Positions 1-48,446 of a stretch of DNA of 48,446 nucleotides are shown in pieces. The stretch lies in sequence record SRR22947725_2636; one strand, 5' to 3'. Both the position numbers and the translations under genes were made by a program. The number at the start of each line of letters is the position of its first letter. The first letter of the stretch is position 1. The notes below the pieces were generated by a model. That model saw nothing but the letters and a program-made list of their open reading frames with translations. It ran no database searches and was not told where the DNA came from.

Positions 1-288
1 AATTGTATTATTAATTTTATGTGCACCAGTATGATTTAAGTCCTCACGCTTCAGATAAATTTTTGCACCGCCAATCTTTTTAGTCAGGTTTTCTGCGAAG
101 TAGAGTGGCGTTTTACGCCCAACATAGTGTTTAAGATCATCCTCAAACTCTTTAAGGAAGTCTGGATCATCTTTAAATTTCTCATAGGCCTCTTTTAACT
201 CTGTGACTGCTGTCATCAGAGTTTCGGCAACAAAGATTCCACCGTATTGATCAAAATGACCTTTTTCGTCAGGAAGGTTATAGCTCAT
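1..288 (-). CDS. trpB: Tryptophan synthase beta chain, N-terminal 96 aa (runs off window edge)
   Basis: Manual translation from ATG at 288: [25 protein letters not shown]...[14 protein letters not shown]...[20 protein letters not shown], containing the PLP-lysine motif [12 protein letters not shown] overlap with the trpF stop. Not in the ORF track. Confidence 0.97.
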
Positions 289-896
289 GAATTGGTATGT
301 CTGATAAAAGCTTCTATTTTATCAATATCCTTAACTCCTGGTGCACTTTCCACGCCACTTGAAGCATCAACTGCATATGGATTTACTTGTTTAATTGCAT
401 CGGCTACATTGTCAACAGTTAAGCCACCAGCCAAAATAATTGGCAATGATATTTTGACACACGCCAATGACCAATCAAAAGACTCACCGGTTCCTCCATA
501 ACTTGAAGGGCTGAAAGAATCTAAAAGGAGTGCGCTAGCTGATGAAAAATTTTCAGCTATTTCTTTAACATTAGTGTCTGGTTTTACGCGTAAAGACTTG
601 ATAAATGGCATTTGATATTGAGCACAATCAAGAACACTTTCATCACCATGAAACTGAAGAGTATCAAGAGGTACCTCACAAAGAATCTCATCAATAAAGC
701 TGGGGTTAGCATTAACAAATAAACCCACTCTATTTATGAAAGGAGGAAGCGCTTCAATTATTTTTTGAGCAGAATGGATATCTACATTTCGTGGAGATTT
801 ATCATAAAAAACCAGGCCGATTGCATCAACGCCGGCTAAGGCAGCATCTCTGGCATTATTAGGCTCAGTAAATCCACAAATTTTTACCTTAGTCAT
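285..896 (-). CDS. trpF: Phosphoribosylanthranilate isomerase
   Basis: [38 protein letters not shown] motifs; directly upstream of trpB. Confidence 0.97.
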
Positions 897-978
897 TAGC
901 TAAATCAATTTCTTTAAAAGAATGATTTTCTCATAGCCTCGCTATGTAATGAATACAATTAAGGAATGAACTTAAAAT

Positions 979-3333: not shown

Positions 3334-3341
3334 AAGAAGAC

Positions 3342-3830
3342 CTACTGAAGGGTAGGGTTATCATCATAAAACACAATAGATTCAATCCATTGTGACGGAA
3401 CAGCAGATTCAGCACTATTTCCGATAACCATCATAACCACCCATTTCAAGTCATCAATACTTAATTTGGAGTCCTCTAGGGACATTACTTGATCAATAAC
3501 TATTTCTCTTTGGCTCGCATTGAGTTGGCCCATATTTTCCATAAACATTATGAATCCTCTGGCTCTAGAATCTAGTTTTGTTTTTTCTAGATCATTGTAG
3601 ATTCTCATGGAATTATGCACTGTATTGAAACTTGCAATTTTTCCATCTTGAAGTGCGGCAATATTCTCAAGCCAAACTAAAGCTTTTTCAATTCGATCCG
3701 AATCAAATCCTGCCTCAGAAAGATGAGTTTTTAATAGATCATCATCCAACTCTTGCGTCGAGTCTTGCTCAGCCGACTCAAACAAAAAATCAAACATAAA
3801 GGTGAGCACATCAAGAATATTATTAGTCAT
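3342..3830 (-). CDS. smg: Smg / DUF494 family protein
   Basis: ILDVLTFMFD, L.EAGF..RIEKAL.WL, MRIY..LE..KLD..RGFI, QRE.VIDQVM.L, DDLKWVVMMV; usual position upstream of topA. Confidence 0.9.
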   Translation of the reverse strand: MTNNILDVLTFMFDFLFESAEQDSTQELDDDLLKTHLSEAGFDSDRIEKALVWLENIAALQDGKIASFNTVHNSMRIYNDLEKTKLDSRARGFIMFMENMGQLNASQREIVIDQVMSLEDSKLSIDDLKWVVMMVIGNSAESAVPSQWIESIVFYDDNPTLQ

Positions 3831-4006
3831 AAGGCCTCATCGAATTTACAGATATTTACTTAATAATTATTTTAAGACCCAATATTAGAAACTTAAAGGT
3901 GTCTTTCTTTTGGTATTACTTGTGGGCAACAATCCCTTTTTTCAACCTCTATACAAGTTATAAAGTGTATACAAAATTTAAGTAACTAATTATTTGTTAC
4001 CTTTCA

Positions 4007-4015
4007 TTATCCACA
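4007..4015 (+). promoter_or_regulatory. Perfect DnaA box TTATCCACA
   Basis: Exact consensus match in the smg/rpmH divergent intergenic region; 7/9 matches at 3921-3929 and 3964-3972 on the opposite strand. Confidence 0.6.
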
Positions 4016-4096
4016 TCTTTACAAAGAGTGGGCTTAATCTAGCTACGAATAGCAAAGAAACTCTTATTTATCAGGCTTACTGAATCAAATCAAGTA

Positions 4097-4105
4097 TGGT
4101 AAAAT
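4097..4105 (+). promoter_or_regulatory. Extended -10 promoter element for the rpmH operon
   Basis: TGgTAAAAT about 30 bp upstream of the rpmH ATG. Confidence 0.5.
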
Positions 4106-4134
4106 TGCAAACTTTTTGTTGGCATACATAGATT

Positions 4135-4269
4135 ATGAAAAGAACTTTCCAACCCAGCGTACTAAAACGCAAACGTAATCATGGCTTTAGAGCCAGAATG
4201 AAAACTCGATCAGGACGTGCCATATTAAGTGCACGAAGAAAAAAAGGGCGTAAGCGCTTAGCAGCATAA
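4135..4269 (+). CDS. rpmH: 50S ribosomal protein L34
   Basis: Manual translation [44 protein letters not shown] (44 aa, below the ORF-track cutoff); upstream of rnpA. Confidence 0.99.
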
Positions 4270-4273
4270 ATAA

Positions 4274-4627
4274 ATGTCCAGCTCGCTCGCTCATAGTGTG
4301 CGTATTACAAATGCAAAAGAGTTCGCTCACGTTTTCAAAAAAGGCTTTCACTCCCAAAGTAAGTTCTGGAAAATAGTTGCTAATGACTCTGGTAATGGTT
4401 TCTCAAGACTGGGCCTTGCCATATCCAAAAAAGAATATAAAAGGGCTGTTGACAGAAACCTATTTAAACGTCTTGCTCGTGAAACTTTTAGAAAAAATCA
4501 AGATAATTTAGACCATCTAGACTTTGTTGTAATGGCTAAAAAATCTAAGTCTAAAAACAATAGTGAATTAACCTTAGATTTGATTACTCTTATGAAAAAT
4601 GCTAAAACGAAGGCAAAAACTCAATGA
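4274..4627 (+). CDS. rnpA: Ribonuclease P protein component
   Basis: RLGLAISKK..KRAVDRNLFKRLARETFR (RNR-type motif); rpmH-rnpA-yidD-yidC synteny. Confidence 0.96.
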   Translation: MSSSLAHSVRITNAKEFAHVFKKGFHSQSKFWKIVANDSGNGFSRLGLAISKKEYKRAVDRNLFKRLARETFRKNQDNLDHLDFVVMAKKSKSKNNSELTLDLITLMKNAKTKAKTQ

Positions 4628-4839
4628 AATATTTGCTTCTACCTCTTATTAAGATTTATCAATGGCTAGTTAGTCCTATTCTAGGAAATAATTGTCGTCA
4701 TATTCCAACATGCTCTGAATATACGTTTGATGCTATCAAATATCATGGTGCGATAAAAGGTGTGGCTCTTGGAGCAAAAAGAATAAGTAAATGCCATCCA
4801 TGGTCTGAAGCTAGCTTTGACCCAGTCCCAAAAAAATAA
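4624..4839 (+). CDS. yidD: Membrane protein insertion efficiency factor
   Basis: YQ..VSP..G.NCRHIPTCSEY...HG.IKG...RISKCHPW...FDPVP. Confidence 0.96.
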   Translation: MKYLLLPLIKIYQWLVSPILGNNCRHIPTCSEYTFDAIKYHGAIKGVALGAKRISKCHPWSEASFDPVPKK

Positions 4840-4859
4840 TTTAAAAAATTTAATACTCT

Positions 4860-6503
4860 ATGAATACTCAAAAACTCTTTCTCTTTATAGCAATTTTTTT
4901 AACAGTCTTTCTTCTTTGGGACAAGTGGGAGCTCACTCAATCGACTGATGCAAATGGTAATGTAATATCCCAAACTCAACTGATTGATAATAGCTCATTA
5001 AGCGAAAAGACTGATATTCCTCTTGCAAGTGACGTTCCTGTTGCTGAGGTTTCAATATCTGATGACTCAACTCCATCAGTAAGCGAGTCAAATATTAATA
5101 GTGCGTATACAACTGTTGTTACAGATCTTTTAACAGTTCAAATTTCCCATAAGGGTGGAACAATAATTAGTGCCTACCTAAATGAATATCCAAACTCTCT
5201 AAACTCTGAAGACAAATTTCAGTTGCTTAGCAACTCTCCAGACAATATTTTTCATGCGCAGAGTGGATTAATTCCAGCAGAGCAAATGCCTACTCATCAA
5301 GATGAATATTTCTCTGAAAGGCAAGATTATTTCTTACAAGGCGGCAATGAATTAGTTGTCCCGCTAAAGTGGACAGGAAGCAATGGTCTTAGTGTTACTA
5401 AAAACTTCCGCTTCAAACCAAACAGCTACATTATTGAAATAGACTATGAGATTAGTAATAATAGTTCTTCTGATCAAGTAGTAAGTAGCTATACACAACT
5501 AGCTCATGGTACTCCTCAAAAATCTGGTAGTTTCATGATGGGCATGCAAAACTTTAATGGTGGTGCAGTCTACAACGATGAGGAAATTTTTGAAAAAATT
5601 GACTTTGAGGACTTTGATTCTACCCCTAAAATGGTATCAGTTGGTGGATGGGCTGCTATGATTCAGCACTACTTTTTTACTGCCTGGATTCCCAATGAAA
5701 AAGAAAAGCATACCTTCTCAACCAAATCAAGCAGAAATAACTATTTACTAACAACAGTAAACCCAGGTGTAAGTATTGCAGCAGGCACTACTACCAATAT
5801 TGGGAAAAACCAACTCTATATTGGCCCTAAAGAACATGTTCGACTTGAACAGTTAGCTCCAGGCCTTGACAAGACTGTTGACTATGGCTTTCTATTTATA
5901 GTTGCTAAGCCTTTATCAGTTTTCTTGCACTGGATCTATAGTTTTGTTCAAAACTGGGCTATTTCAATAATTCTAGTTACTTTAGCTATAAAACTTGCTT
6001 TCTATAAGCTTTCGGAGAAATCATTTCGCTCGATGGCAGGAATGAAAAAACTTGCGCCAAGACTTCAAAAAATCAAAGAAACATATGAGGGTGATAAACA
6101 GAAAATTGGCAAAAAGACAATGGAGCTATACAGAACAGAAAAAATCAATCCTGCTGCGGGTTGTCTACCAATCCTAGTTCAAATCCCTGTATTTATATCA
6201 ATTTACTGGGTCCTTATTGAAATGGTGGAGCTCCGCCAAACACCATTCTTGTACTTGCCAGATTTAGCGGCTAAAGATCCTTTCTTTATCTTGCCACTTA
6301 TTATGGGCGCGTCAATGTGGTTCCAGCAAAGGCTTAATCCGCCTCCTGCAGATCCAATCCAGGCAAGAATAATGCAGATGCTTCCGGTTGTATTTACTGT
6401 TTTCTTCCTTTGGTTCCCTTCAGGACTAGTATTATATTGGGTTACCAATAACGTGCTGTCAATTGCACAACAAGTATATATCAATAAAAAAATTAATGGA
6501 TAA
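4860..6503 (+). CDS. yidC: Membrane protein insertase
   Basis: N-terminal TM, periplasmic domain (GWAAMIQHYF), VDYG, INPAAGCLPILVQIPVF, FPSGLVLYW. Confidence 0.98.
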   Translation: MNTQKLFLFIAIFLTVFLLWDKWELTQSTDANGNVISQTQLIDNSSLSEKTDIPLASDVPVAEVSISDDSTPSVSESNINSAYTTVVTDLLTVQISHKGGTIISAYLNEYPNSLNSEDKFQLLSNSPDNIFHAQSGLIPAEQMPTHQDEYFSERQDYFLQGGNELVVPLKWTGSNGLSVTKNFRFKPNSYIIEIDYEISNNSSSDQVVSSYTQLAHGTPQKSGSFMMGMQNFNGGAVYNDEEIFEKIDFEDFDSTPKMVSVGGWAAMIQHYFFTAWIPNEKEKHTFSTKSSRNNYLLTTVNPGVSIAAGTTTNIGKNQLYIGPKEHVRLEQLAPGLDKTVDYGFLFIVAKPLSVFLHWIYSFVQNWAISIILVTLAIKLAFYKLSEKSFRSMAGMKKLAPRLQKIKETYEGDKQKIGKKTMELYRTEKINPAAGCLPILVQIPVFISIYWVLIEMVELRQTPFLYLPDLAAKDPFFILPLIMGASMWFQQRLNPPPADPIQARIMQMLPVVFTVFFLWFPSGLVLYWVTNNVLSIAQQVYINKKING

Positions 6504-20426: not shown

Positions 20427-21250
20427 GCGACTTGATAAAAGACAATCTTAACAAATCAACCAATCTTTTGGATAAAGATAGCACTGCCTATAGGGTTTTT
20501 GGTGAGAGTGGCCCATACTTAATTTTTGTTCATGGAGTTGGTATGTCTGGTGAAATTTGGACACCCCAAGTGAAACATTTTTTTTCTAACTATAGAGTTA
20601 TAACATATGACTTTCTTGGGCATGGCCAGAGTCCAATCCCAAAAAAACCCCCTTCCATTGAGGACTATGTTGAACAACTCAACTCACTTGTAGAAACAAT
20701 TAATATCTCTAATTTCAGTCTAGTTGGCCACTCCATGGGTGCTCTAATAAGTGTTGCTTTTGGCCTAAAGTATCCAGAAAAAATTACCGCATTAATATCT
20801 CTAAATATGGTTTATAAAAGAAGTATAAATGCTCAAATTGATGTAATCGAACGTGCAAATTTAATTTTAAAACAAGGTGAAATAAATAATATAGGCCAAA
20901 CCTTGGATAGATGGTTTAAAAATAAAACAGAATATCATCAAATTCAGCAAATAAAGAAAGTGCATCAACTTTTAACTGATGTAAATCCGCAGGGTTATGG
21001 ATACGCATATAAATTATTTGCAGAGTCTGATCGTCACTTTGAAAATAAACTTTCAGAACTTAGCGTACCTGTTTTATACTTAACTGGGAGTGACGATCCA
21101 AACTCAACCCCAGATATGTCAAGCGAAATGGCTCATGAATCTCCTCAAGGCAGTTTTATCAGTATTGCAAATGAAGCACATATGATGGCGTATATTGCCC
21201 CAGAAAAGATAAATCCAGTAATTGAAAAATTTATAAAAACGAATGAATAA
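20423..21250 (+). CDS. tgnD: Alpha/beta hydrolase, TgnD-like (trigonelline pathway hydrolase)
   Basis: FVHGVG, YDFLGHG, GHSMG nucleophile, TGSDD.NSTP, EAHMM; assignment rests on operon context. Confidence 0.72.
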   Translation: MSDLIKDNLNKSTNLLDKDSTAYRVFGESGPYLIFVHGVGMSGEIWTPQVKHFFSNYRVITYDFLGHGQSPIPKKPPSIEDYVEQLNSLVETINISNFSLVGHSMGALISVAFGLKYPEKITALISLNMVYKRSINAQIDVIERANLILKQGEINNIGQTLDRWFKNKTEYHQIQQIKKVHQLLTDVNPQGYGYAYKLFAESDRHFENKLSELSVPVLYLTGSDDPNSTPDMSSEMAHESPQGSFISIANEAHMMAYIAPEKINPVIEKFIKTNE

Positions 21251-38077: not shown

Positions 38078-39604
38078 ATGAAAAATACAAAATTACTTCT
38101 AATTCTTGACGGATGGGGCTATTCAAGTAATTCTGCAAATAATGCTATTGCTCTAGCAAAAACGCCAAACTGGGATCTCTTTATAAAAAACTATCCTAAT
38201 ACACTTATTGGAACTTCCGGAGAAAGCGTTGGTCTGCCTATAGGTCAAATGGGAAACTCTGAAGTAGGTCACCTAACAATAGGATCTGGAAGAATTATTG
38301 AACAAGACTTTACTAGAATTGACAATGACATCGACTCTGGTGAATTTTTTAACAATAAAACTCTTTGTAAAGCTCTAGAACTGGCGTCTCAAAACAATAA
38401 AGCTGTCCACATTCTTGGCTTATTATCGGATGGCGGCGTTCACTCTCATCAAAATCATATTTTTGCAGCACTTGAGCTTGCCAAACAAAAAAACTGTAAC
38501 CAAGTTTATTTTCATGTCTTTACCGATGGTCGTGATACCCCGCCAAACAGCGCCTCAAAATATATCGAACAACTAGAATCTAAAATTTCAGAAACAAATG
38601 TTGGAAGAATCGTCTCAGTAGTTGGCCGCTTTTATGCAATGGATAGAGATAACAGATGGGAGAGGGTTGCTCAGGCTTATGATTTAATTTCTGGAGAGAA
38701 GGCTGAGCGCTCTTCACAGAGCGCAATAGAGGCCATTCAACAGGCATATAAATTAGGTGAAAATGATGAGTTTATAGCTCCAACATCAATTGGTGAGGCC
38801 GTTAAAATCAATCAAGATGACCTTGTAATCTTTATGAATTACCGAGCAGACAGAGCAAGAGAAATAACGCTTGCTCTTACCTCTAGAGCATTTGATGAGT
38901 TTAGCCGAAAACATTTTGTGAAGTGCAATTTTATTTGTCTAACAGAATATAAAAAAGACCTTAATCTAGAGTGTGCTTATCCGCCAATTTCAGTTAAAAA
39001 TACCCTTGGTGACTGTGTCTCTAGCTCTGGATTCAATCAACTAAGGATTGCTGAAACAGAAAAATACGCTCACGTTACTTTTTTCTTTAATGGTGGCGAG
39101 GAAGAAATCCTGCCTGGAGAAGATAGAAGGCTCATTCAATCGCCCAATGTCAAAACATATGACCTTCAGCCAGAAATGAGCGCATATGAGCTTACTGATA
39201 ACCTTATTTCTGCGCTAGAAGAAAACAAATATAAGTTAATTGTATGTAACTTTGCCAATACTGATATGGTTGGCCATACTGGTAATCTAGATGCTGCTAT
39301 TAAAGCTGTAGAAGCGGTTGACAATTGTCTCGGCAAAATCTACAAAGCGGCCTCAGAGAATGCTACTGAGATTTTGATCACTGCTGACCATGGAAATGCA
39401 GAGCAGATGGTTGACTCTAATACTCAGAAGAGCCATACTGCTCACACCACAAATCCAGTGCCATTAATTTATATTGGAAAAAAGAAAGCCTCACTACTGG
39501 GACCACATCTTGGTACACTTGCAGACTTGGCACCAACACTTTTAGCCCTCATGGACATTAAACAACCTGCTGAGATGTCTGGCCAAAACCTTTTAATTGA
39601 GTAA
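38078..39604 (+). CDS. gpmI: 2,3-bisphosphoglycerate-independent phosphoglycerate mutase (alternative GTG start 38066)
   Basis: [54 protein letters not shown]. Confidence 0.98.
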
Positions 39605-39615
39605 CGGAGATAATC

Positions 39616-40290
39616 ATGAAACAAGACAATTTTATTGCGCCTTCAATTCTCTCTGCAGATTTTGCCAAACTCGGCGAAGAGGTTGATAACGTTTTAGTTG
39701 CGGGTGCTGATATAGTGCATTTTGATGTGATGGACAATCATTATGTACCCAATCTAACAATTGGCCCTTTAGTTTGTGAAGCATTAAGAAACCATGGCGT
39801 AACTGCACCAATTGACGTCCATCTCATGGTCAAACCTGTGGACAGAATCATCCCTGACTTTGCTAGTGCTGGCGCCTCGTATATCACCTTTCATCCTGAG
39901 GCTTCAGATCATGTTGACCGTACGATTGGCCTGATTAAAGAAAGCGGCTGTAAAGCTGGACTAGTTTTTAATCCAGCCACACCTCTTCACTATCTAGAGC
40001 ATACAATTGAACAACTCGATATGGTGTTGCTAATGTCCGTTAATCCAGGCTTTGGAGGACAATCTTTTATCCCTCATACTCTAGAAAAATTAAAAACTGT
40101 CAGAAAACTAATTGACTCTCATGGCTTGGCAACAAGGCTTGAGATTGATGGCGGAGTTAAGATTGACAACATTAAAGAAATAGCCTCTGCCGGTGCTGAT
40201 ACATTTGTTGCAGGGTCTGCTATTTTTAATACTGAAAACTACAAAGCGACAATTGATAAAATGCGCTCAGAGCTGGCTATAGCAAAGTAG
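39616..40290 (+). CDS. rpe: Ribulose-phosphate 3-epimerase
   Basis: [34 protein letters not shown]. Confidence 0.98.
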
Positions 40291-40401
40291 CTTTTTATAA
40301 GCTTAAAGGTCTCAATTTTCGAAAGTAAATTCGCGTAATTTCAAAACAACTCTTCAATTAGTTGTGAGAAAATATTAGTTTGTTTTCTAAAACTATTGCT
40401 T

Positions 40402-41703
40402 ATGGGTAAGTCTTCCTTTTTTGGGCCTGAAACTATTTCGCTTCACACTGGGTATCAACCAGACCCTTCGTTTGGTAGTCGCGCCGTCCCGGTTTACCAA
40501 ACAACATCTTATGTCTTCGAAACTGTAGATGATGCCGCTGCACTCTTTAACATAGAAAAAGGTGGTCACATATATAGCCGCATGACTAATCCAACAGTGG
40601 CTGTTTTAGAACAGAGAATTGCTGCACTTGAAGGGGGTGTTGGAGCAATCTGTACGGCTTCTGGAATGAGCGCCCTGTTTGTAACATTTGTAAGCTTATG
40701 TTCAGCTGGTGATCATATTGTAAGCGCCTCACAAATTTATGGGTCAACAGCGACTCTTCTTAAACACACACTTAAACGGTTTAATATTGATTGCACTTTT
40801 GTGTCTATTAATGATGAAAAAGCACTTAAATCTGCCATTCAAGAAAATACAAAACTTATTTTTTGTGAATCGATTGGCAACCCTGGGCTTGAGGTTTCAG
40901 ATCTTCCAAAAATTTCAAAAATAGCTCATCAAAATAGCTTGCCGCTCATAGTTGATGCAACTTTTTCAACGCCTATCCTTTGTAAACCTTTTGATCATGG
41001 CGTTGATGTTGTAGTTCACTCTGTGACTAAGTGGATGGGGGGTCATGGTGTTGCCGTTGGAGGAGTCATTGTTGATGGCGGAGCTTTTGACTGGGGCTCC
41101 TCTAAGAAACACCCTGTCCTCACTACTCCATACGAGCCATTTCATGGAATAAACTTCTGGGAGGAGTTTGGACCGTCAGCTCTTTCAATGAAAATTAGAG
41201 CTGAGTCTATGCGTGACTTTGGCCCTGCAATGAGTCCTCATAGTGCGTTCTTACTTCTCCAAGGAATTGAAACCCTTAGTCTGCGAATGAATCAACATGT
41301 AAAAAATGCGCTAAAACTTGCAAAATGGCTTCTTGAGCAATCCGCAGTTATGTGGGTTAATCATCCTGACTTGCCCGAAAATCCTACCTATGAAATTGCA
41401 AAAGCACTTTTCCCTAATGGTGCTGGATCAATGCTATGCTTCGGTGTTAAAGGAGGAAGAGAGGGTGGAGCAGCATTCATTAATGCTCTTAAATTATCTT
41501 CAAATTTAGCAAATGTTGGTGATTCTAGAACTTTGGTTTTGCATCCAGCTAGCACAACTCACTCTCGCCTTGATGATGAAGCGATGAAGGCTTCAGGCAC
41601 TAGTCCTGACTTAATTCGAGTTTCAGTTGGAATAGAGTCTGTTTCAGATATTATTAATGATTTTAAAATCGGCCTTAAGGCAGTAGAAAAGGCAACTTCA
41701 TAA
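40402..41703 (+). CDS. metY: O-acetylhomoserine aminocarboxypropyltransferase / sulfhydrylase (MetY family, PLP)
   Basis: P.YQTTSYVF, IYSRMTNPT, HSVTKWMGGHG (PLP Lys), ANVGDSRTLV.HPASTTH, IRVSVG.E; ATG at 40402 chosen. Confidence 0.88.
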   Translation: MGKSSFFGPETISLHTGYQPDPSFGSRAVPVYQTTSYVFETVDDAAALFNIEKGGHIYSRMTNPTVAVLEQRIAALEGGVGAICTASGMSALFVTFVSLCSAGDHIVSASQIYGSTATLLKHTLKRFNIDCTFVSINDEKALKSAIQENTKLIFCESIGNPGLEVSDLPKISKIAHQNSLPLIVDATFSTPILCKPFDHGVDVVVHSVTKWMGGHGVAVGGVIVDGGAFDWGSSKKHPVLTTPYEPFHGINFWEEFGPSALSMKIRAESMRDFGPAMSPHSAFLLLQGIETLSLRMNQHVKNALKLAKWLLEQSAVMWVNHPDLPENPTYEIAKALFPNGAGSMLCFGVKGGREGGAAFINALKLSSNLANVGDSRTLVLHPASTTHSRLDDEAMKASGTSPDLIRVSVGIESVSDIINDFKIGLKAVEKATS

Positions 41704-42494
41704 TGAACATTGTTGTTGAAGGAGTAAATATATTTGCAGCAACTGGAGGATGTGCTTTTGACCCAAAAAAACCGACAGTGGTTTTTGTTCATGGAAGTGG
41801 GCTAGATCATAGATCATGGGCTCTTCAGTCAAGATGGTTTGCATTTCATGGTTACTCAGTTTTTGCGCCTGACTTTCCAGGTCACAGCCTGTCAGAAGGG
41901 GAGCCCCTAAAGTCAATAGAGAGCATGGGCAAATGGCTTGTGAAAGCTATCAAGCATTCTGGTGCAGAATCTGTACATCTTGTAGGACACTCTCAGGGCT
42001 TTCTTGTTGCTTTAGAAGCTGCAACTTTACTGGGAGAAAAGATAAAATCCCTAACAGCAGTTGCTAGCGCCTCTGCAATTCCTGTTAACGAGTCTCTAGT
42101 CGAAACTGCCAAAAAAAATACTGAAGAAGCTGCTGAGATGCTTTTAAAATGGGGCTTTGGATCTCTATCTCATTCAGGCAGTAGTGCCATTCCTGGAATG
42201 CAACCGATAGGTATTGGACGACAAATCATGTCAAAGAATCCATTAGCTGAAGACCTCTTGGCTTGCAATAACTACAAAAATGGAGCTAACTGTGCAAAAG
42301 CAATTAAAGTGCCCTCAAATGTAATTCTGGCAACTGAAGATAAAAATACTCCTTACAAATTTGGACTAGAATTAGCAGAGCTGCTGGGTGCAAAGACAAC
42401 AACCATTTCTGGTGCTGGACATATGCTCCCTATAGAGTCGCCAAAAAGTACTTTAGATGCTATTAAAACATTCATTTTAAAAACAAGCTCATGA
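41703..42494 (+). CDS. Alpha/beta hydrolase coupled to metY
   Basis: FVHGSG, PDFPGHS, GHSQG nucleophile elbow, EDKNTP (Asp), AGHML (His); TAATG overlap with metY. Confidence 0.9.
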   Translation: MNIVVEGVNIFAATGGCAFDPKKPTVVFVHGSGLDHRSWALQSRWFAFHGYSVFAPDFPGHSLSEGEPLKSIESMGKWLVKAIKHSGAESVHLVGHSQGFLVALEAATLLGEKIKSLTAVASASAIPVNESLVETAKKNTEEAAEMLLKWGFGSLSHSGSSAIPGMQPIGIGRQIMSKNPLAEDLLACNNYKNGANCAKAIKVPSNVILATEDKNTPYKFGLELAELLGAKTTTISGAGHMLPIESPKSTLDAIKTFILKTSS

Positions 42495-44785
42495 ATAAAA
42501 TTAAAAAAGTTGGCGTCATTGGCGCCGGAACAATGGGGGCTGGTATTGCTGGCCAAGTAGCAAACGCTGGCATAGAAGTGTGGCTTCTTGATCTTCCTTC
42601 TGATAGCGATAATGTTAACAGCTTAGCGGAGAGAGGCCTTCAAAGGCTCAAAGACCCAGATATGCCAGGGATTATGAGCAAAGAGGCCGAACAGCTTATT
42701 AATCTTGGAAACACCAGAGATCATTTTGATGAACTCAAAAATTGTGACTGGATTGCTGAAGCTGTTGTAGAAAGGCTTGATATAAAACAAGCTCTCTATC
42801 GGCAGCTTAATGAAAGCTGTAAAGACTCTACCATAATTACTTCTAATACCTCTACTATTCCGATTAGTCTTCTGACTGAAGGCATGCCAAAAAGCTTTTG
42901 TGAGCGTTTTGCAATTACTCATTTTTTTAATCCAGTTCGCTTCATGAGACTTCTAGAGCTAGTTCGAGGTGAGCAAACTAGACAAGACGTTATGGACACA
43001 CTTGATGTATTTTGTGAAACGATGCTTGGAAAGGGGGTTGTCCCTTGTCTCGATACGCCTGGCTTTCTTGCAAATCGAGTTGGTGTTTTTGCAATTCAGT
43101 GCGCCCTTCATAAGGCATTTAAATATAATCTCTCCCCAATAGAAGCGGATGCTTTTTTTGGAAGGCCCCTTGGTTTACCCAAAACTGGAGTATTTGGACT
43201 TTATGACTTGATTGGCATCGACCTTATGGCTGATGTTGCAAAAAGCCTGGAAAATATCTTGCCCGAAAACGATGCTTTTCATAAATACGCATCGCCAATA
43301 GAGTTCGTCTCTAACATGATTGCTAATGGCCAAACTGGGAATAAAAATGAACAGGGTTTTTATAAGCAGGCTGGAGATGAAAAAAAGGTTATCGACTTTT
43401 TAAGTGGAGACTATGTTGATCATGAGAGACTGAAAACACCTTTGTTGGAAAAGGCGGAAAAAGTTGGTGTAACTGCAATTATCAGCGATGAAAGTAAATA
43501 CGGCCTCTTCATTTGGGAGGTTCTCTCTGAGACTTTATGCTATGCGGCCTCATTAGTGCCAGAAGTTACTGAAGATCTTGCCCAAATTGATGATGCTATG
43601 AAGCTTGGCTATAACTGGGTTAAAGGGCCATTTGAACTTATTGATGAGATAGGTATCGATTACTTGGTCAACAGGCTTAAAAAAAGTGGCAAAGATGTAC
43701 CTGACTTCCTTTTAAGTAGCTCAAACAATAAGTTTTATAATACTACCAATTCAGTCTTAAGTGTTCTATCTCCATCTGGAAAGCTTAGCCCAATTTTTAG
43801 GCCAAAAGGTGTTCTTAGGTTCTCTGAAGCAAGACAAACACTAGTGCCCATCAATGTTAATGAGTCTGCTAGTTGGTTTGAATATGAGGGTGCGGCCATA
43901 GTCGAGTTTCATTCAAAAGCAAATGCACTTGACAGTCAAAGCTTAGATATGATTTCTGACGCAGTTACTTACTCAGAGAAAAAAGGACTTAGAGGTGTAA
44001 TAGTACACAATGACTTTCAGCATTTTTCTTGTGGTGTTAGCCTTTGGAGTGTTAGAGAATGCTTTGAAAAAAATGATTTCGATGGGCTTGATGCCTTTCT
44101 TACCTATTTTCAAAATACAATGCTTCAAATGAGAGACTCGAAACTTCCTGTTATTGCTGCGCCAGTAGGTATGTCTATCGGAGGTGGATTTGAAGTTGTG
44201 TTGCATGCTGACCATGTAGTAAGCCACGCCAACTCTGTGATGGGCCTAGTTGAGTCTTTTGTTGGAGTTGTGCCAGCAGGAGGTGGGTGTAAAGAAATGC
44301 TTTATCGATGGACTGAAAAATTAAATGATACGCAAAAAGGGGCTTGGAAATCATTTATGAATATAGGCCTGGGTAGAAAAGCTAACTCGCCTCAAGAGGC
44401 TGATGCATTAGCTATGCGAAGGGCTGATGATGTATTTCAGATGAATCGTGATCGAATTTTAAATATTGCCCTTTCAAAACTTGACGACACAAAAAAAGCT
44501 AGCCAAAGGAGCCCACTTGCCTTATCAGGCGCTGAGCACTTCAAAGAAATGCTAGAATGGCTTGAGGTTAACAACAAAAAAGGAATGCTTACACCGCATG
44601 ATGTCACTGTTGGAACCGAGATTGGCCGAATAATGTCTGGAGGTGACTGCCCAGCAGGCACTGTTTTTTCTGAACAGGAAATTTTAGATGCTGAGCGCTC
44701 TTCTTTTATCACTCTTGCGCAAACTCAAGAAACTCAAGCAAGAATTGTGTCCATGCTAGATAATGGCGTTACTCTAAGAAATTAA
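42491..44785 (+). CDS. 3-hydroxyacyl-CoA dehydrogenase / enoyl-CoA hydratase fusion (FadN-like domain order)
   Basis: GAGTMGAGIA, EAVVE, SNTS, HFFNP in the N-terminal HAD domain; GGGFE and LVE..VG..PAGGG in the C-terminal crotonase domain. Confidence 0.92.
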   Translation: MNKIKKVGVIGAGTMGAGIAGQVANAGIEVWLLDLPSDSDNVNSLAERGLQRLKDPDMPGIMSKEAEQLINLGNTRDHFDELKNCDWIAEAVVERLDIKQALYRQLNESCKDSTIITSNTSTIPISLLTEGMPKSFCERFAITHFFNPVRFMRLLELVRGEQTRQDVMDTLDVFCETMLGKGVVPCLDTPGFLANRVGVFAIQCALHKAFKYNLSPIEADAFFGRPLGLPKTGVFGLYDLIGIDLMADVAKSLENILPENDAFHKYASPIEFVSNMIANGQTGNKNEQGFYKQAGDEKKVIDFLSGDYVDHERLKTPLLEKAEKVGVTAIISDESKYGLFIWEVLSETLCYAASLVPEVTEDLAQIDDAMKLGYNWVKGPFELIDEIGIDYLVNRLKKSGKDVPDFLLSSSNNKFYNTTNSVLSVLSPSGKLSPIFRPKGVLRFSEARQTLVPINVNESASWFEYEGAAIVEFHSKANALDSQSLDMISDAVTYSEKKGLRGVIVHNDFQHFSCGVSLWSVRECFEKNDFDGLDAFLTYFQNTMLQMRDSKLPVIAAPVGMSIGGGFEVVLHADHVVSHANSVMGLVESFVGVVPAGGGCKEMLYRWTEKLNDTQKGAWKSFMNIGLGRKANSPQEADALAMRRADDVFQMNRDRILNIALSKLDDTKKASQRSPLALSGAEHFKEMLEWLEVNNKKGMLTPHDVTVGTEIGRIMSGGDCPAGTVFSEQEILDAERSSFITLAQTQETQARIVSMLDNGVTLRN

Positions 44786-44796
44786 CAGTTAAGACT

Positions 44797-46410
44797 ATGA
44801 ATAAAAATCCTGCTAATTTTGTACCCCTTACTCCTATCTCTTTTTTACATAGAACTGCAGATATCTATGGAGAGCATCAGTCTGTTCTCTATGAAAATAG
44901 GTCTTATACCTGGGGAGAATCTAGAGAGAGGTGTGTTCGAATTGCCTCCAGTCTAAATGGTCATGGTGTCATGCCAGGAGACACCGTTTCAGTGCTCGCA
45001 TTCAATACACCAGAAATGTTTGAGTCCCATTTTTCAATTCCTATGGCGGGCGCAATTCTAAACACGATAAATATCAGGCTTGATGCTCCAACTATCGCTT
45101 ATATTTTTGATGATAGCAATGCAAAAATGCTCTTTGTTGATAGAGAGCTTTATAGTGTTGCCTCAGAGGCACTAGCTATAGCCTCAGTTAGTCCAAAGAT
45201 AGTTGTAATAAATGATTCTTTTGCCAGCTCACAGCCGGACGTCTCTAGTGAAGCAATAGACTATGAATCTCTTGTTAAAAATGGAGACCCTCTTTATAGC
45301 TGGACAATGCCCAGCGATGAGTGGAGCCCGCTCTCACTTAGCTACACCTCTGGAACAACAGGTAAGCCCAAGGGCGTGGTTTATCATCACCGTGGTTCGT
45401 ATTTAATGAGCATGGGCACTGTTGTTGGCTGGAACCTTCCTAACCATCCTGTTTACTTATATTCTGTTCCATTATTTCATTGCAATGGTTGGGGACATGC
45501 CTGGACAATGGCCGCTCTTGCTGGGACCATAGTTTGCCTCAGGTCTTTTGATCCTGAAAAAGTATTTAGTTTGCTTGATGAGCACCGAGTCACTCATTTT
45601 GGCGGGGCTCCAATAATGCTTAATATGCTTGCCAACGCCCCTAAAGAGATAAAAAAATCATTTAAAAGAGAAATCAAGGTAATGACTGCTGGCGCCCCAC
45701 CTCCCGCGAAAGTTTTAGAAAGCATGATGTCGTTAGGATTTAACGTTATGCATGTCTATGGGCTGACAGAAACATATGGACATATTCTTCAAGCAGCTCC
45801 TCAGGCATCATGGCTCAATGAAAGTCCAGCAGAGCTTGCCAAACTAAGCTCCAGGCAGGGTGTTAGGTTTCCGATGACTGAAGATGTTAGTGTAATCGAT
45901 CAAGAGACTGGTGAGCGCGTTCCTCACAACGGTGAAGCTATTGGTGAAATTGTGATTCGCTGCAATACTTGCATGATGGGCTACTGGAATAATCTTAAAG
46001 CCACAGAGGAGGCGTTTGCTAACGGCTGGTTTCATAGTGGTGACTTGGCAGTAATTCATAATGATGGCTATATCCAAATCAAGGATAGGTCAAAAGATAT
46101 TATCATTTCGGGTGGCGAAAATATTTCCTCAGTAGAGGTCGAAAATGTTCTTTACCAGCACCCCTCAGTTGGAGAGGCTGCAGTTGTTGCAATGTCAGAT
46201 GAAAAATGGGGAGAAGTGCCCTGTGCTTTTGTCGAGCTTAAGCCCAATGAAGAGGCATCTGAAGACGAGTTAATTGCTTTTTGCAAAGATAACATGGCTA
46301 AATTTAAAAGGCCAAAAAAAGTTGTTTTTGGCTCGCTTCCAAAAACTGCAACGGGCAAAATTCAGAAGCACGAATTAAGGGCGGCTATTAAAAAACTAGG
46401 AGAAGAGTGA
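44797..46410 (+). CDS. dmdB: Short-chain acyl-CoA synthetase, DmdB-like (3-methylmercaptopropionyl-CoA ligase family)
   Basis: ANFVPLTP.SFL, YTSGTTGKPKGV, PLFHCNGW, YGLTE, WFHSGD, IISGGENISS.EVE, PKTATGKIQK; substrate inferred from context. Confidence 0.65.
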   Translation: MNKNPANFVPLTPISFLHRTADIYGEHQSVLYENRSYTWGESRERCVRIASSLNGHGVMPGDTVSVLAFNTPEMFESHFSIPMAGAILNTINIRLDAPTIAYIFDDSNAKMLFVDRELYSVASEALAIASVSPKIVVINDSFASSQPDVSSEAIDYESLVKNGDPLYSWTMPSDEWSPLSLSYTSGTTGKPKGVVYHHRGSYLMSMGTVVGWNLPNHPVYLYSVPLFHCNGWGHAWTMAALAGTIVCLRSFDPEKVFSLLDEHRVTHFGGAPIMLNMLANAPKEIKKSFKREIKVMTAGAPPPAKVLESMMSLGFNVMHVYGLTETYGHILQAAPQASWLNESPAELAKLSSRQGVRFPMTEDVSVIDQETGERVPHNGEAIGEIVIRCNTCMMGYWNNLKATEEAFANGWFHSGDLAVIHNDGYIQIKDRSKDIIISGGENISSVEVENVLYQHPSVGEAAVVAMSDEKWGEVPCAFVELKPNEEASEDELIAFCKDNMAKFKRPKKVVFGSLPKTATGKIQKHELRAAIKKLGEE

Positions 46411-48164
46411 TGTCAAACTATACTGCTCCCGTTGAAGATATGGGCTTTGTTTTAAAAGAGGTTGTTGAGATTGAAAAGCTTTGCAATGAAACTGGGCTTG
46501 ATAGCTCAACAGCTGAAATAATTGATACTGTTTTAGATGCTGCTGGTAAGCTTGCCAAAGAAGAAATAGAGCCCATCAATAAGTCTGGTGACTCAGAAGG
46601 CCTAAAGATAGATGACTCAGGAAAAGTCACAACTGCAGCTGGCTTTAAGGAGGCCTACCGACACTTTGTTGAAGGAGGCTGGGGATCACTGCAATTCTCC
46701 CCTGAATATGGGGGCCAAGGCGTCCCGTTTGTTGTTGCTGCAAGTGTTCAAGAAATGTGGCATTCTGCTAATATGTCATGGGGCCTATGCCCTCTTCTTA
46801 CACAAGGAGCAGTTGAGGCTATCACACTCAATGCGACTGAAGATCTCAAACAACGCTACCTTCCAAAACTAATCTCTGGAGAATGGAGCGGCACAATGAA
46901 CCTTACGGAGGGTGATGCTGGAACTGATGTTGGCTCACTTAAAACGCGTGCAACTCAGAATGGAGAGCACTATTTAATCCGTGGTCAAAAAATTTATATC
47001 ACCTGGGGTGAGCATGATATGTCTGAAAATATCATTCATTTGGTCTTAGCCCGACTACCAAATGCTCCCGATGGAATTAAAGGCATTTCACTATTTTTAG
47101 TGCCAAAAATACTGGTTAATGATGATGGCACTCTTGGAAAGCCAAACGACTTAAAGGCATTGTCAATTGAACATAAAATTGGCATTCATGCATGCCCTAC
47201 ATGTGTCATGAGCTATGGCGAAATAGATGGGGCAGTTGGCTACCTGGTGGGTGAAGAGAATAAAGGAATACAGTGCATGTTCACAATGATGAACAACGCA
47301 AGACTTACTGTAGGCCTTCAAGGAGTTTCAATTTCAGAACGGGCATACCAGCAAGCACTTAGTTTTTGCAATGAGCGTGTTCAAGGCGTTGCCCCTGGCT
47401 TCACAGATATTGGCCCTATTATTAGGCATCCAGATGTTCAAAGAATGTTAGCTAATATGAAGTCAATCACACAGGGCTCTCGTGTATTAACATATGCAGC
47501 TTGTGCAGAGGTAGACTACTCTTTAAGCAAGCTTCCACTCGAGAACCTAGAAAAACACGAAAGGAGGCTTGGACTGTTGACCCCAATAGTTAAGGGCTGG
47601 TGCACAGAGACTGCTCAGGAGGTTGCCTCTTTAAGTCTCCAGTGCCATGGAGGAATGGGCTATGTTGAGGAAACGGGTATTGCTCAAATCCTAAGAGATG
47701 CGCGAATTTTGCCAATTTATGAGGGGACAAATGGCATTCAAGCGATGGATCTTGTGGGCAGAAAGATTATTAGTGATGGTGGATTGGGCGCCCGAGAGCT
47801 AATTTCAGAGATGAAAGAATGTATTAAAAATCCAGCAATTGCGGAGTTAGTTTCTGTCTCTCAGTTAAAACGCTTTTCAAAATCTATTGATGACCTAGAC
47901 AGCACTATTACAATTATTCTAAATCACTCAGACAATAAAGAGCTAGTTGGAAAAATTGCCTTTGATACGCTCATGATGGCTGGCACAATTACAGCGTCTT
48001 GGCAGATGCTATTAAGTCTTGATAGAGCATCAAATGCCGTGAATAATCATAAATCTTCAGCTGAGTTTTTAAAAGAGAAGGCTGACACTGTAAAGCATTT
48101 TATTGACTTTATCTTGCCTCGATATCTCTCGAGCTTTACAACGATATCCGCGAGCGCCGAGTAA
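46410..48164 (+). CDS. dmdC: Acyl-CoA dehydrogenase, DmdC-like long form
   Basis: Y.APV.DM.F.L, GTMNLTE, KIYITWGEHDM.ENIIHLVLAR, MF.MMN.ARL, IYEGTNGIQAMDL (catalytic Glu); ATG 46410 follows a GGAG SD. Confidence 0.68.
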   Translation: MSNYTAPVEDMGFVLKEVVEIEKLCNETGLDSSTAEIIDTVLDAAGKLAKEEIEPINKSGDSEGLKIDDSGKVTTAAGFKEAYRHFVEGGWGSLQFSPEYGGQGVPFVVAASVQEMWHSANMSWGLCPLLTQGAVEAITLNATEDLKQRYLPKLISGEWSGTMNLTEGDAGTDVGSLKTRATQNGEHYLIRGQKIYITWGEHDMSENIIHLVLARLPNAPDGIKGISLFLVPKILVNDDGTLGKPNDLKALSIEHKIGIHACPTCVMSYGEIDGAVGYLVGEENKGIQCMFTMMNNARLTVGLQGVSISERAYQQALSFCNERVQGVAPGFTDIGPIIRHPDVQRMLANMKSITQGSRVLTYAACAEVDYSLSKLPLENLEKHERRLGLLTPIVKGWCTETAQEVASLSLQCHGGMGYVEETGIAQILRDARILPIYEGTNGIQAMDLVGRKIISDGGLGARELISEMKECIKNPAIAELVSVSQLKRFSKSIDDLDSTITIILNHSDNKELVGKIAFDTLMMAGTITASWQMLLSLDRASNAVNNHKSSAEFLKEKADTVKHFIDFILPRYLSSFTTISASAE

Positions 48165-48184
48165 TTATTAACAACAAAGTTGTT

Positions 48185-48216
48185 GCAATACTATTGCGTT
48201 TACGTTATATTATTCT
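48185..48216 (+). promoter_or_regulatory. Two Zur/Fur-family-like boxes
   Basis: GCAAT-ACT-ATTGC palindrome (48185-48197) and GTTAT-ATT-ATTCT (48204-48216), compared with Zur core GTTAT-N3-ATAAC; upstream of a His-rich exported protein. Confidence 0.5.
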
Positions 48217-48239
48217 GTTTTAATCAAGCAGGGACTCAT

Positions 48240-48446
48240 ATGTTTAAACTTAGCTTTCTATCTTTACTGTTAGTTTCTTCCTTCGCAAGTGCTGAAGAGG
48301 CAAGACGTGCTAACGCGCATGTCCACGAACTAAACAACTTATCAATGGTTATCAGTCAAAACCAAGTTGCTATTACCTATGAAATGCCAATAGTCCAATT
48401 ATTTGATGAGCATGATGAGCATGATGAACATGATGAACATGACGAG
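48240..48446 (+). CDS. Exported His-rich metal-binding protein, ZrgA/DUF2796-like (partial, runs off window)
   Basis: Manual translation MFKLSFLSLLLVSSFASA-EEARRANAHVHELNNLSMVI...YEMPIVQLFDEHDEHDEHDEHDE; signal peptide and AHVH motif; not in the ORF track. Confidence 0.75.
   Translation, partial: MFKLSFLSLLLVSSFASAEEARRANAHVHELNNLSMVISQNQVAITYEMPIVQLFDEHDEHDEHDEHDE
48405..48446 (+). repeat. 9-bp tandem repeat GATGARCAT encoding (DEH)n
   Basis: At least 4.7 units, truncated by the window end. Confidence 0.9.

Follow-up and report, generated by a model that had tools for sequence, protein, structure and literature searches.

Through the bacterial demethylation of dimethylsulfoniopropionate (DMSP), a large part of the organic sulfur of the sea ends up in bacterial biomass and not in dimethyl sulfide, a climate-active gas. 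In the pathway described in Ruegeria pomeroyi, in Candidatus Pelagibacter and in SAR92, DmdA, DmdB, DmdC and either DmdD or AcuH act in turn, and the steps that follow DmdA consist of ligation to coenzyme A (CoA), dehydrogenation and a hydration releasing methanethiol. Two links in this scheme are weak, that is, the identity of the methanethiol-releasing enzyme in many bacteria that lack DmdD and the capture of the volatile thiol. In SAR11 the capture of DMSP-derived methanethiol by MetY is the accepted model, DmdD is lacking, and the methanethiol-releasing enzyme is stated to be open (PMC5069961). Here we report the analysis of a stretch of 48,446 nucleotides from the sequence record SRR22947725_2636 (the whole stretch is referred to as the window), harboring at positions 40402-48164 five genes that code for a MetY-type enzyme, an alpha/beta hydrolase, a FadN-type dehydrogenase/hydratase, an acyl-CoA ligase and an acyl-CoA dehydrogenase (ACAD). 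On the basis of the comparisons reported below, these genes probably represent one operon for the release of methanethiol from 3-methylmercaptopropionate (MMPA), which is what DMSP demethylation yields, and for the capture of this thiol as methionine.

The operon shares with the known pathway the logic of CoA ligation, dehydrogenation and methanethiol-releasing hydration; its ACAD belongs to the DmdC family and, in other lineages, the operon is linked to dmdA. The differences concern the hydratase, which is stand-alone in the known pathway (DmdD/AcuH) and here is the C-terminal domain of a 764-aa FadN with an intact NAD-dependent dehydrogenase domain; the ligase, which is of the PRK08162 type and falls outside the curated DmdB equivalog; and the gene content, in that metY and a hydrolase gene (abh) are included and dmdA is not adjacent in this genus. 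A second set of related systems is represented by the beta-oxidation operons organized as thiolase-fadN-acad or fadE-fadN-fadA, the same FadN type being found in the Bacillus fadN-fadA-fadE operon. They have the same FadN architecture and motifs, and the ACAD of the window is of the type found in thiolase-fadN-acad operons. In contrast to them, however, the operon described here has no thiolase, its partners are metY, abh, the PRK08162 ligase gene and, elsewhere, dmdA, and its FadN belongs to a separate clade, whose wider clade has GGGFE and HFFNPVR in place of the GGGCE and HFFNPPR of the beta-oxidation clades. Lastly, the SAR11 MetY falls in the same subfamily (TIGR01326), with the same proposed reaction (PMC5069961); in our case, however, metY heads a putative thiol-releasing operon, the hydrolase gene always follows it and its product is predicted to form a complex with MetY, and no S-adenosylmethionine riboswitch was found upstream (Rfam, E<=1, positions 39400-48446, the sole match being a chance-level small RNA, 0.92).

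As far as protein families and gene linkage can tell, the operon is most likely a variant of the demethylation pathway in which a specialised FadN-type enzyme and a PRK08162 ligase have been joined to the metY-hydrolase pair. Such an operon would bring the capturing enzyme and candidate enzymes for thiol release into physical linkage, both in an abundant heterotroph of the SUP05 clade and in several further marine lineages. Three candidates can be tested directly, namely the FadN subclade, the PRK08162 ligase and the hydrolase tied to metY, and surveys based on roseobacter DmdB/DmdD models would overlook this route. The literature searched for a dmdA-metY-FadN arrangement yielded no description of a dmdA-metY-hydrolase-FadN-ligase operon. 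The co-localization of MMPA-assimilation genes with dmdA has been reported for bins of the Ant4D3 clade and, since the gene set is shown only in the supplementary Figure S8b of that paper (PMC6383258), a partial earlier notice may exist in print.

Gene content and host of the metY operon

The cluster is composed of the following genes:

40402-41703, + strand: metY, O-acetylhomoserine sulfhydrylase-type pyridoxal phosphate (PLP) enzyme (Cys_Met_Meta_PP)
41703-42494, + strand: abh, alpha/beta hydrolase of 263 aa (Pfam Abhydrolase_1/6)
42491-44785, + strand: FadN-type dehydrogenase/hydratase of 764 aa (3HCDH_N and 3HCDH N-terminal, ECH_1 C-terminal)
44797-46410, + strand: PRK08162-type acyl-CoA ligase of 537 aa (AMP-binding)
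46407-48164, + strand: ACAD of 585 aa, of the DmdC / Pseudomonas aeruginosa FadE1-FadE2 family (Acyl-CoA_dh_N/M/1 and Acyl-CoA_dh_C)

The open reading frame (ORF) of metY opens at a TTG at position 40396, and the ATG at 40402 is its likely start. The original prediction, made from these letters, had described five co-oriented genes headed by metY and joined by overlaps or an 11-bp gap, and this is borne out by ORFs, families and junctions; the latter, read from the sequence, consist of overlaps of 1 base (metY/abh), 4 bases (abh/fadN) and 4 bases (ligase/ACAD) and of an 11-bp gap between fadN and the ligase gene. It had also reported thiolase as absent and dmdA as missing from the window, in agreement with the absence of any tblastn match (E<=1e-5) in the 48 kb to thiolase and DmdA-like queries from the nearest genome. 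The housekeeping genes gpmI and rpe lie 5' of the operon and a ZrgA-type zinc-uptake gene, read in the nearest genome, lies 3'; the presence of rpe on one side and of the ZrgA-type gene on the other thus delimits a cluster of five genes.

Loci identical to the operon occur in Candidatus Pseudothioglobus, the SUP05-clade heterotroph mentioned above, which is listed among the predicted DMSP degraders (PMC13310141). The nearest genome, G001 (1.71 Mb, one contig, 99% identical over the region; G and L codes denote genomes and loci/contigs, respectively, as labelled in this analysis), contains only three ACAD genes, coding for a 385-aa protein, the window type and an 818-aa FadE type, the last of which is embedded in a complete fadE-fadN-fadA cluster (FadN of 812 aa) separate from the operon. 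Ordinary beta-oxidation is thus already covered in this genome, and the window cluster represents a second, thiolase-free set; two thiolases are encoded elsewhere in G001. The same genome harbors a DmdA scoring above the NCBI curated cut-off (427 vs 410 bits), whose gene is located at 716 kb without dmd neighbors.

Linkage to dmdA in orthologous loci

The order rpe-metY-abh-fadN-acs-acad (acs being the ligase gene) is kept in 13/13 genome loci of the genus and in most of 80 metagenome loci. Since the flanking genes are conserved too, this synteny is uninformative on function, and the survey was therefore extended outside the genus. To this purpose, 400 evenly drawn gammaproteobacterial genomes were searched with the window FadN, 90 of them matching at E<=1e-80; 40 FadN loci were fetched and scored with the window proteins and with the beta-oxidation and dmd proteins of G001, and DmdA was called at the NCBI curated equivalog cut-off of 410 bits. 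The FadN and DmdA tallies over the 400 genomes include G252 and G404, both flagged as unpublished, on neither of which any specific claim rests.

It had been set out beforehand that the proposed function would be contradicted by orthologous clusters usually containing a thiolase and lacking metY. The opposite was found: outside the genus, all the seven loci in which a FadN with 44% identity or more adjoins metY-abh have dmdA beside metY and are devoid of a thiolase. These loci are the following:

G424, G453 and G198, from three different families: dmdA-metY-abh-fadN-ligase with unrelated flanks, FadN 56-59% identical
G074, sister genus in the same family: divergent dmdA, then metY-abh-fadN to the contig end, FadN 63% identical
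L253 and L254, single metagenome contigs: dmdA diverging from metY-abh-fadN-ligase-ACAD, FadN 65% identical
G791, from another class: divergent dmdA-metY-abh-fadN-ligase (ligase 53% identical), FadN 44% identical

The scoring of the adjacent DmdA covered six of the seven loci (all but L254) and gave 465 bits in G424, 454 in G453, 432 in G198, 416 in G074, 414 in L253 and 459 in G791; the one adjacent DmdA compared with the Protein Data Bank (PDB) has as its best match the Candidatus Pelagibacter DmdA structure 3tfh (378 bits). Flanking genes vary among these loci. In G074 the ligase (71% identical) and the ACAD (59%) are encoded on a second contig, and in G228 and G439 the arrangement dmdA-metY-abh runs up to the contig end. 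A DmdA above the cut-off is present in 16/400 genomes. Outside the genus, seven sampled genomes encode a FadN with 44% identity or more, and six of them have such a DmdA, a count in which relatedness is uncontrolled; the exception is G301, whose FadN sits at a contig edge. As for the more distant FadN sequences (37-42% identical), a thiolase gene is placed directly beside fadN at 11/11 loci, ten of which also have a DmdC-type ACAD, and the 812-aa FadN type has a thiolase alongside in 18 of 20 loci, L095 and L111 being the exceptions.

A phylogenetic tree of 46 FadN-type proteins was constructed (IQ-TREE, LG+G4, quick search, with support from the SH-like approximate likelihood-ratio test, SH-aLRT, only). 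The five metY-linked rows fall together in a clade of their own (SH-aLRT 99), nested in a clade of eight that takes in solitary genes (100) and that is sister (94) to 11 thiolase-linked rows of the thiolase-fadN-acad type (98), while the 812-aa FadN of G001 falls in a third clade. We read this topology as consistent with the neighborhoods and not as statistics, the sample being small and the groups having been defined by neighborhood and then counted.

Other genes were observed within or beside the dmdA-linked operons. In G198 an ORF of 146 aa with weak glyoxalase/VOC-like matches (about 21 bits) lies between abh and fadN (L080 8005-8445, + strand). Beside the divergent dmdA of L253, positions 48-5407 (- strand) code for an FMN-dependent LldD-like 2-hydroxyacid dehydrogenase, a 4HBT_2 thioesterase-like protein, a short ACAD of 385 aa and an ADP-forming acyl-CoA synthetase-like protein; these proteins possibly contribute to the same metabolism in this sister lineage.

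Candidate functions and proposed route

The window FadN has the architecture of FadN/FadB-type proteins (3HCDH_N, 3HCDH and ECH domains with catalytic motifs) and scores 507 bits with the equivalog-like model Staph_FadB NF052272, under its cut-off of 999. In the alignment with 45 FadN-type homologues it keeps GGGFE, LVE, HFFNP, LLE and the NAD-binding GxGxxG. We take the Glu residues of GGGFE and LVE to be the catalytic residues of the crotonase domain, and the His of HFFNP and the Glu of LLE to be those of the dehydrogenase domain; the earlier statement that the crotonase domain retains both catalytic Glu motifs is confirmed over the 46 sequences. Since all the dehydrogenase motifs are kept as well, the dehydrogenase domain is likely to be functional, and any pathway proposed has to account for it, unlike the scheme originally predicted. 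The crotonase is a domain of a 764-aa protein and not a stand-alone orthologue of DmdD, and no chain named as R. pomeroyi DmdD appears among the best 60 of the 61 PDB matches of FadN. As to a thiolase partner, none is encoded in the window, downstream in G001 or in any metY-linked orthologous locus.

The ligase matches NF006020 (PRK08162) with 809 bits over residues 2-534, above the cut-off of 677. Its identity with the ligases encoded in dmdA-metY-abh-fadN-acs operons amounts to 58-66%, and ligases 51-57% identical to it are encoded directly beside dmdA, without metY, in G370, G181, G508 and G399; overall, its relatives (51-66% identical) adjoin dmdA in seven sampled genomes. PRK08162-type ligases thus appear to be the usual ligase partner of DmdA in Gammaproteobacteria, and the window protein is a candidate MMPA-CoA ligase, that is, a putative functional analogue of DmdB. 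The ACAD, in turn, is a candidate MMPA-CoA dehydrogenase. The hallmarks reported for DmdC are a length of about 590 aa, an Acyl-CoA_dh_C extension and three residues, namely the catalytic Glu435, the adjacent Tyr434 and Arg448 (Shao et al. 2019, PMC6850173); the window protein has 585 aa, the extension (PF12806, 46 bits) and a Tyr-Glu-Gly and an Arg aligned with DmdC positions 434-436 and 448, and its type is the only DmdC-type ACAD among the three of G001.

MetY scores 587 bits with TIGR01326 (curated cut-off 495) and 623 bits with the equivalog NF006004, just under the cut-off of 636. The methionine genes of G001 comprise MetZ adjoining purF, a MetA-type homoserine acyltransferase, a CGS-family protein and MetC; among the four Cys/Met-PLP genes (the others being MetZ, CGS-family and MetC) the window-type metY is the only one of the MetY type, and MetY is an extra enzyme beside the other methionine genes. 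As for sulfate assimilation, a CysH/CysD-type protein was not found in G001 (PF01507, best match 24 bits), and one NIR_SIR protein is present.

A search with the hydrolase encoded by abh at E<=1e-10 yielded 891 homologues, whose names are all generic and which are up to about 60% identical in Sneathiella, Aliamphritea and Leucothrix; the ESM Atlas returned generic hydrolase clusters only, and the metagenome scan recovered no more than close relatives (67-100% identical). The gene is found in 21/400 gammaproteobacterial genomes, with metY directly upstream at 16/16 readable loci and a 17th locus at a contig start, and in 33/401 sampled Pseudomonadota, with metY directly upstream in all 20 loci fetched (of 32 outside G001). 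The metY-abh couple is a conserved pair across Pseudomonadota, adjacent in 36/36 readable loci; on the megaplasmid of Ralstonia solanacearum, for instance, the two overlapping genes are annotated as "O-acetylhomoserine aminocarboxypropyltransferase" and "alpha/beta hydrolase". In four loci (L125, L126, L132 and L134, from genomes G490, G147, G192 and G321) a dehydrogenase-only homologue of the N-terminal half of FadN (36-40% identical, about 450 aa) is divergent from metY-abh; a PRK08162 ligase gene in convergent orientation accompanies two of these loci, and in one locus the dehydrogenase gene is followed by that of a thiolase. Although arranged differently, these loci provide another link between metY-abh and genes of CoA pathways. 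Another alpha/beta-hydrolase-like stretch, 25% identical to abh (tblastn, E 4e-9), is located at positions 20480-21235 of the window.

Ser97, Asp213 and His240 of the hydrolase are invariant in 32 homologues. The nearest structures to its AlphaFold model (predicted local distance difference test, pLDDT, 93) according to Foldseek are short-chain carboxylesterases and an enol-lactonase, and the fold is also near to aryl esterases/perhydrolases and to an esterase degrading acyl-homoserine lactones. By sequence, its best PDB match is weak (5frd, 52 bits); 5frd is an esterase crystallised with CoA near the active site (PMC4861933). The possibility that this protein is MetX was considered and rejected, no match to TIGR01392 having been obtained in the G001 scan and no MetX occurring in the NCBIfam matches or in the top 50 Foldseek matches; the MetX identity is thus lowered, and an acyltransferase role may still apply.

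A prediction of the complex between MetY and the hydrolase supports their binding: it scored 0.82, against 0.23 for the best of three controls, a level reached by 51/78 solved complexes and by 2/108 mismatched pairs. The three runs share at least 90% of the contacts, with a partner pLDDT of at least 92, and the predicted contact is formed by a conserved cap loop of the hydrolase (residues 155-175) with the N-terminal region of MetY. The MetY surface involved flanks the conserved Tyr58-x-Arg60, a motif that is presumably located at the catalytic-dimer interface in this enzyme family; the prediction was made with a single copy of MetY. On the whole, the hydrolase is read as an accessory enzyme of MetY, belonging with it rather than with the CoA enzymes. 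Three candidate roles can be suggested: the synthesis of O-acetylhomoserine in bacteria whose main route uses O-succinylhomoserine, which the MetZ of G001 fits; the release of the thiol from a thioester; and the removal of CoA from the C3 product.

The gene order, the protein families, the conserved association with dmdA and metY and the structure of the FadN subclades are what was observed here, and from them we infer the substrates of all the steps, as follows. The PRK08162 ligase would convert MMPA into MMPA-CoA, and the DmdC-type dehydrogenase would convert the latter into methylthioacryloyl-CoA; the crotonase domain of FadN would then hydrate methylthioacryloyl-CoA, and the resulting hemithioacetal would give up methanethiol, which MetY would combine with O-acetylhomoserine to form methionine. 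The dehydrogenase domain of FadN would probably act on the C3 product. It could start from the hemithioacetal or from hydrated malonate-semialdehyde-CoA and oxidize it towards a malonyl thioester or malonyl-CoA; alternatively, it could reduce malonate-semialdehyde-CoA to 3-hydroxypropionyl-CoA. The hydrolase, as the partner of MetY, might supply O-acetylhomoserine or release the thiol from a thioester. A thiolase would be unnecessary, since a C3 skeleton offers no C-C bond whose cleavage would be of use. A bolder version of this route, which we put forward tentatively and regard as rather doubtful, is that of a distinct oxidative and thiolase-free demethylation branch, in which FadN would hydrate methylthioacryloyl-CoA and oxidize the hemithioacetal or the hydrated aldehyde with NAD+, the carbon would be retained in malonyl-CoA, whereas it is otherwise lost in the form of acetaldehyde and CO2, and the MetY-bound hydrolase would free methanethiol or make O-acetylhomoserine at MetY, thereby channelling the volatile thiol into methionine and preventing its escape. 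If true, this branch would provide a candidate methanethiol-releasing step in bacteria lacking DmdD, together with a function for the widespread metY-hydrolase pair.

Alternative readings and further observations

Several data weigh against the reading of the cluster as an MMPA-to-methionine operon. All the statements on genome content rest on the nearest genome, G001. In the genus itself dmdA is not adjacent, and rpe is directly upstream of metY at all the 13 loci. Four of the dmdA-linked operons are devoid of an ACAD gene, homologues 42-52% identical being present elsewhere in those genomes; three FadN genes of the same wider clade (44-54% identical) are solitary; and most metY-abh pairs have no CoA-pathway neighbor, so that the hydrolase need not act in an MMPA pathway. 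Concerning the CoA enzymes, the ligase falls far below the DmdB equivalog NF005426 (314 bits vs a cut-off of 822), and it resembles the DmdB structure 6ihk (246 bits) no more than FadD5 or AasS; the label "DmdB-like" originally given to it is at odds with the curated model. The label "DmdC-like" holds for the ACAD in length, extension and residues, but the protein is slightly closer to the P. aeruginosa FadE structures (8png/8r1e, 467/464 bits) than to DmdC (6ijc, 427 bits), and the residues do not discriminate DmdC, since the FadE structures share the equivalents of Tyr434, Glu435 and Arg448. In addition, DmdB- and DmdC-type enzymes are reported to be broad, short-/medium-chain enzymes (PMC5395565), and the sequence by itself is thus unable to settle the substrates.

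Lastly, G001 contains a second candidate demethylation cluster, which might provide a second route:

G001:C1:1672858-1676973 (L022 6858-10974), + strand: DmdA-like gene, OsmC-like gene, ECHDC3-like crotonase gene and a paralogous PRK08162 ligase gene, separated from the window cluster by about 58 kb that include the origin

Its DmdA-like product scores 376 bits, under the cut-off of 410; the OsmC-like protein has 150 aa, the crotonase, a stand-alone protein, matches PRK08139 with 390 bits, and the ligase is 50% identical to that of the window. The cluster directly follows a dipeptide ABC transporter and a prolidase-like gene, and it resembles the dmdA-acuH-dmdB-dmdC arrangement described for SAR92 (PMC10746254), from which it differs in having no ACAD gene. 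With this cluster and the canonical fadE-fadN-fadA cluster present in the same genome, FadN can be regarded at most as a possible replacement for DmdD. Of the idea of a methanethiol-to-methionine operon, then, the linkage of metY and dmdA and the absence of thiolase in the orthologous loci speak in favor, whereas the ligase label, the missing role for the dehydrogenase domain and the placement of the hydrolase had to be revised.

Among the alternatives, the one that survives best, even though we regard it as unlikely, is that the cluster serves ordinary short-/medium-chain beta-oxidation, with a thiolase encoded elsewhere and an unrelated metY-abh pair alongside. Indeed, the families of the three CoA enzymes are those of general beta-oxidation, the two thiolases of G001 could complete the cycle, the sister FadN clade is found in thiolase-fadN-acad operons with the same ACAD type, and the best PDB matches of the ACAD are the P. 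aeruginosa FadE structures, a series (8PNG, 8PNS, 8PU5 and 8R1E) reported in PMC11890623. However, this genome already has its complete fadE-fadN-fadA cluster, FadN falls in a separate clade with its own active-site substitutions, and the overlapping metY-abh-fadN-acs arrangement recurs in several families and in another class, with varied flanks and always beside dmdA.

A thiolase-free C3 route for acrylate, propionate or 3-hydroxypropionate, with metY co-regulated only because both serve DMSP use, appears quite improbable. Modified beta-oxidation of propionate is a known route of this kind, and the enzyme set would fit it: the ligase and the ACAD would lead to acryloyl-CoA, FadN would hydrate it and oxidize 3-hydroxypropionyl-CoA to malonate-semialdehyde-CoA, and the hydrolase would remove CoA, so that both the dehydrogenase domain and a thioester hydrolase would find a role. 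The R. pomeroyi DmdB enzymes are also reported to accept propionate and acrylate (PMC5395565). Against this route, the linked gene is the demethylase dmdA and not a DMSP lyase, and the hydrolase gene is bound to metY in every readable locus, mostly without CoA-pathway genes. Similarly, it is very unlikely that the substrate is another methylthio- or thioether acid, for example from methionine or methylthioadenosine breakdown, with MetY still capturing the thiol: the lack of an adjacent dmdA in this genus, the origin of MMPA also from methionine degradation and a salvage pathway (PMC5395565) and the occurrence of metY-abh in non-marine bacteria such as Ralstonia would agree with it, but dmdA neighbors all seven metY-linked FadN loci outside the genus, and the DmdA proteins scored there exceed the cut-off.

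As for expression signals, promoter-like sites are rarer than in shuffled sequences (12 vs 17.7) and a clear promoter was not found, nor was a convincing terminator at the bounds of the operon. Nine runs recorded as RNA contain at least 83% of the sampled words of the stretch, and contigs from marine metatranscriptomes (four RNA libraries from four studies) span all the genes and junctions, including rpe-metY. Given their flat depth, the bridging into rpe and possible DNA carry-over, these contigs are evidence neither for transcription nor for the boundaries of the operon.

Some minor observations concern the surrounding genes. The ZrgA-family zinc-uptake protein encoded after the operon (window 48180-48446; L003 11595-12206, - strand) has a run of Asp-Glu-His repeats, and in G001 its gene is followed by those for an ABC ATPase, a permease, another periplasmic protein and a Fur-family regulator. 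In the same genome, ribosomal protein S2 (L003 1463-2575, - strand) carries a long C-terminal tandem-repeat extension made of EEKKPATEAAA-like units and then of KKPAA units.

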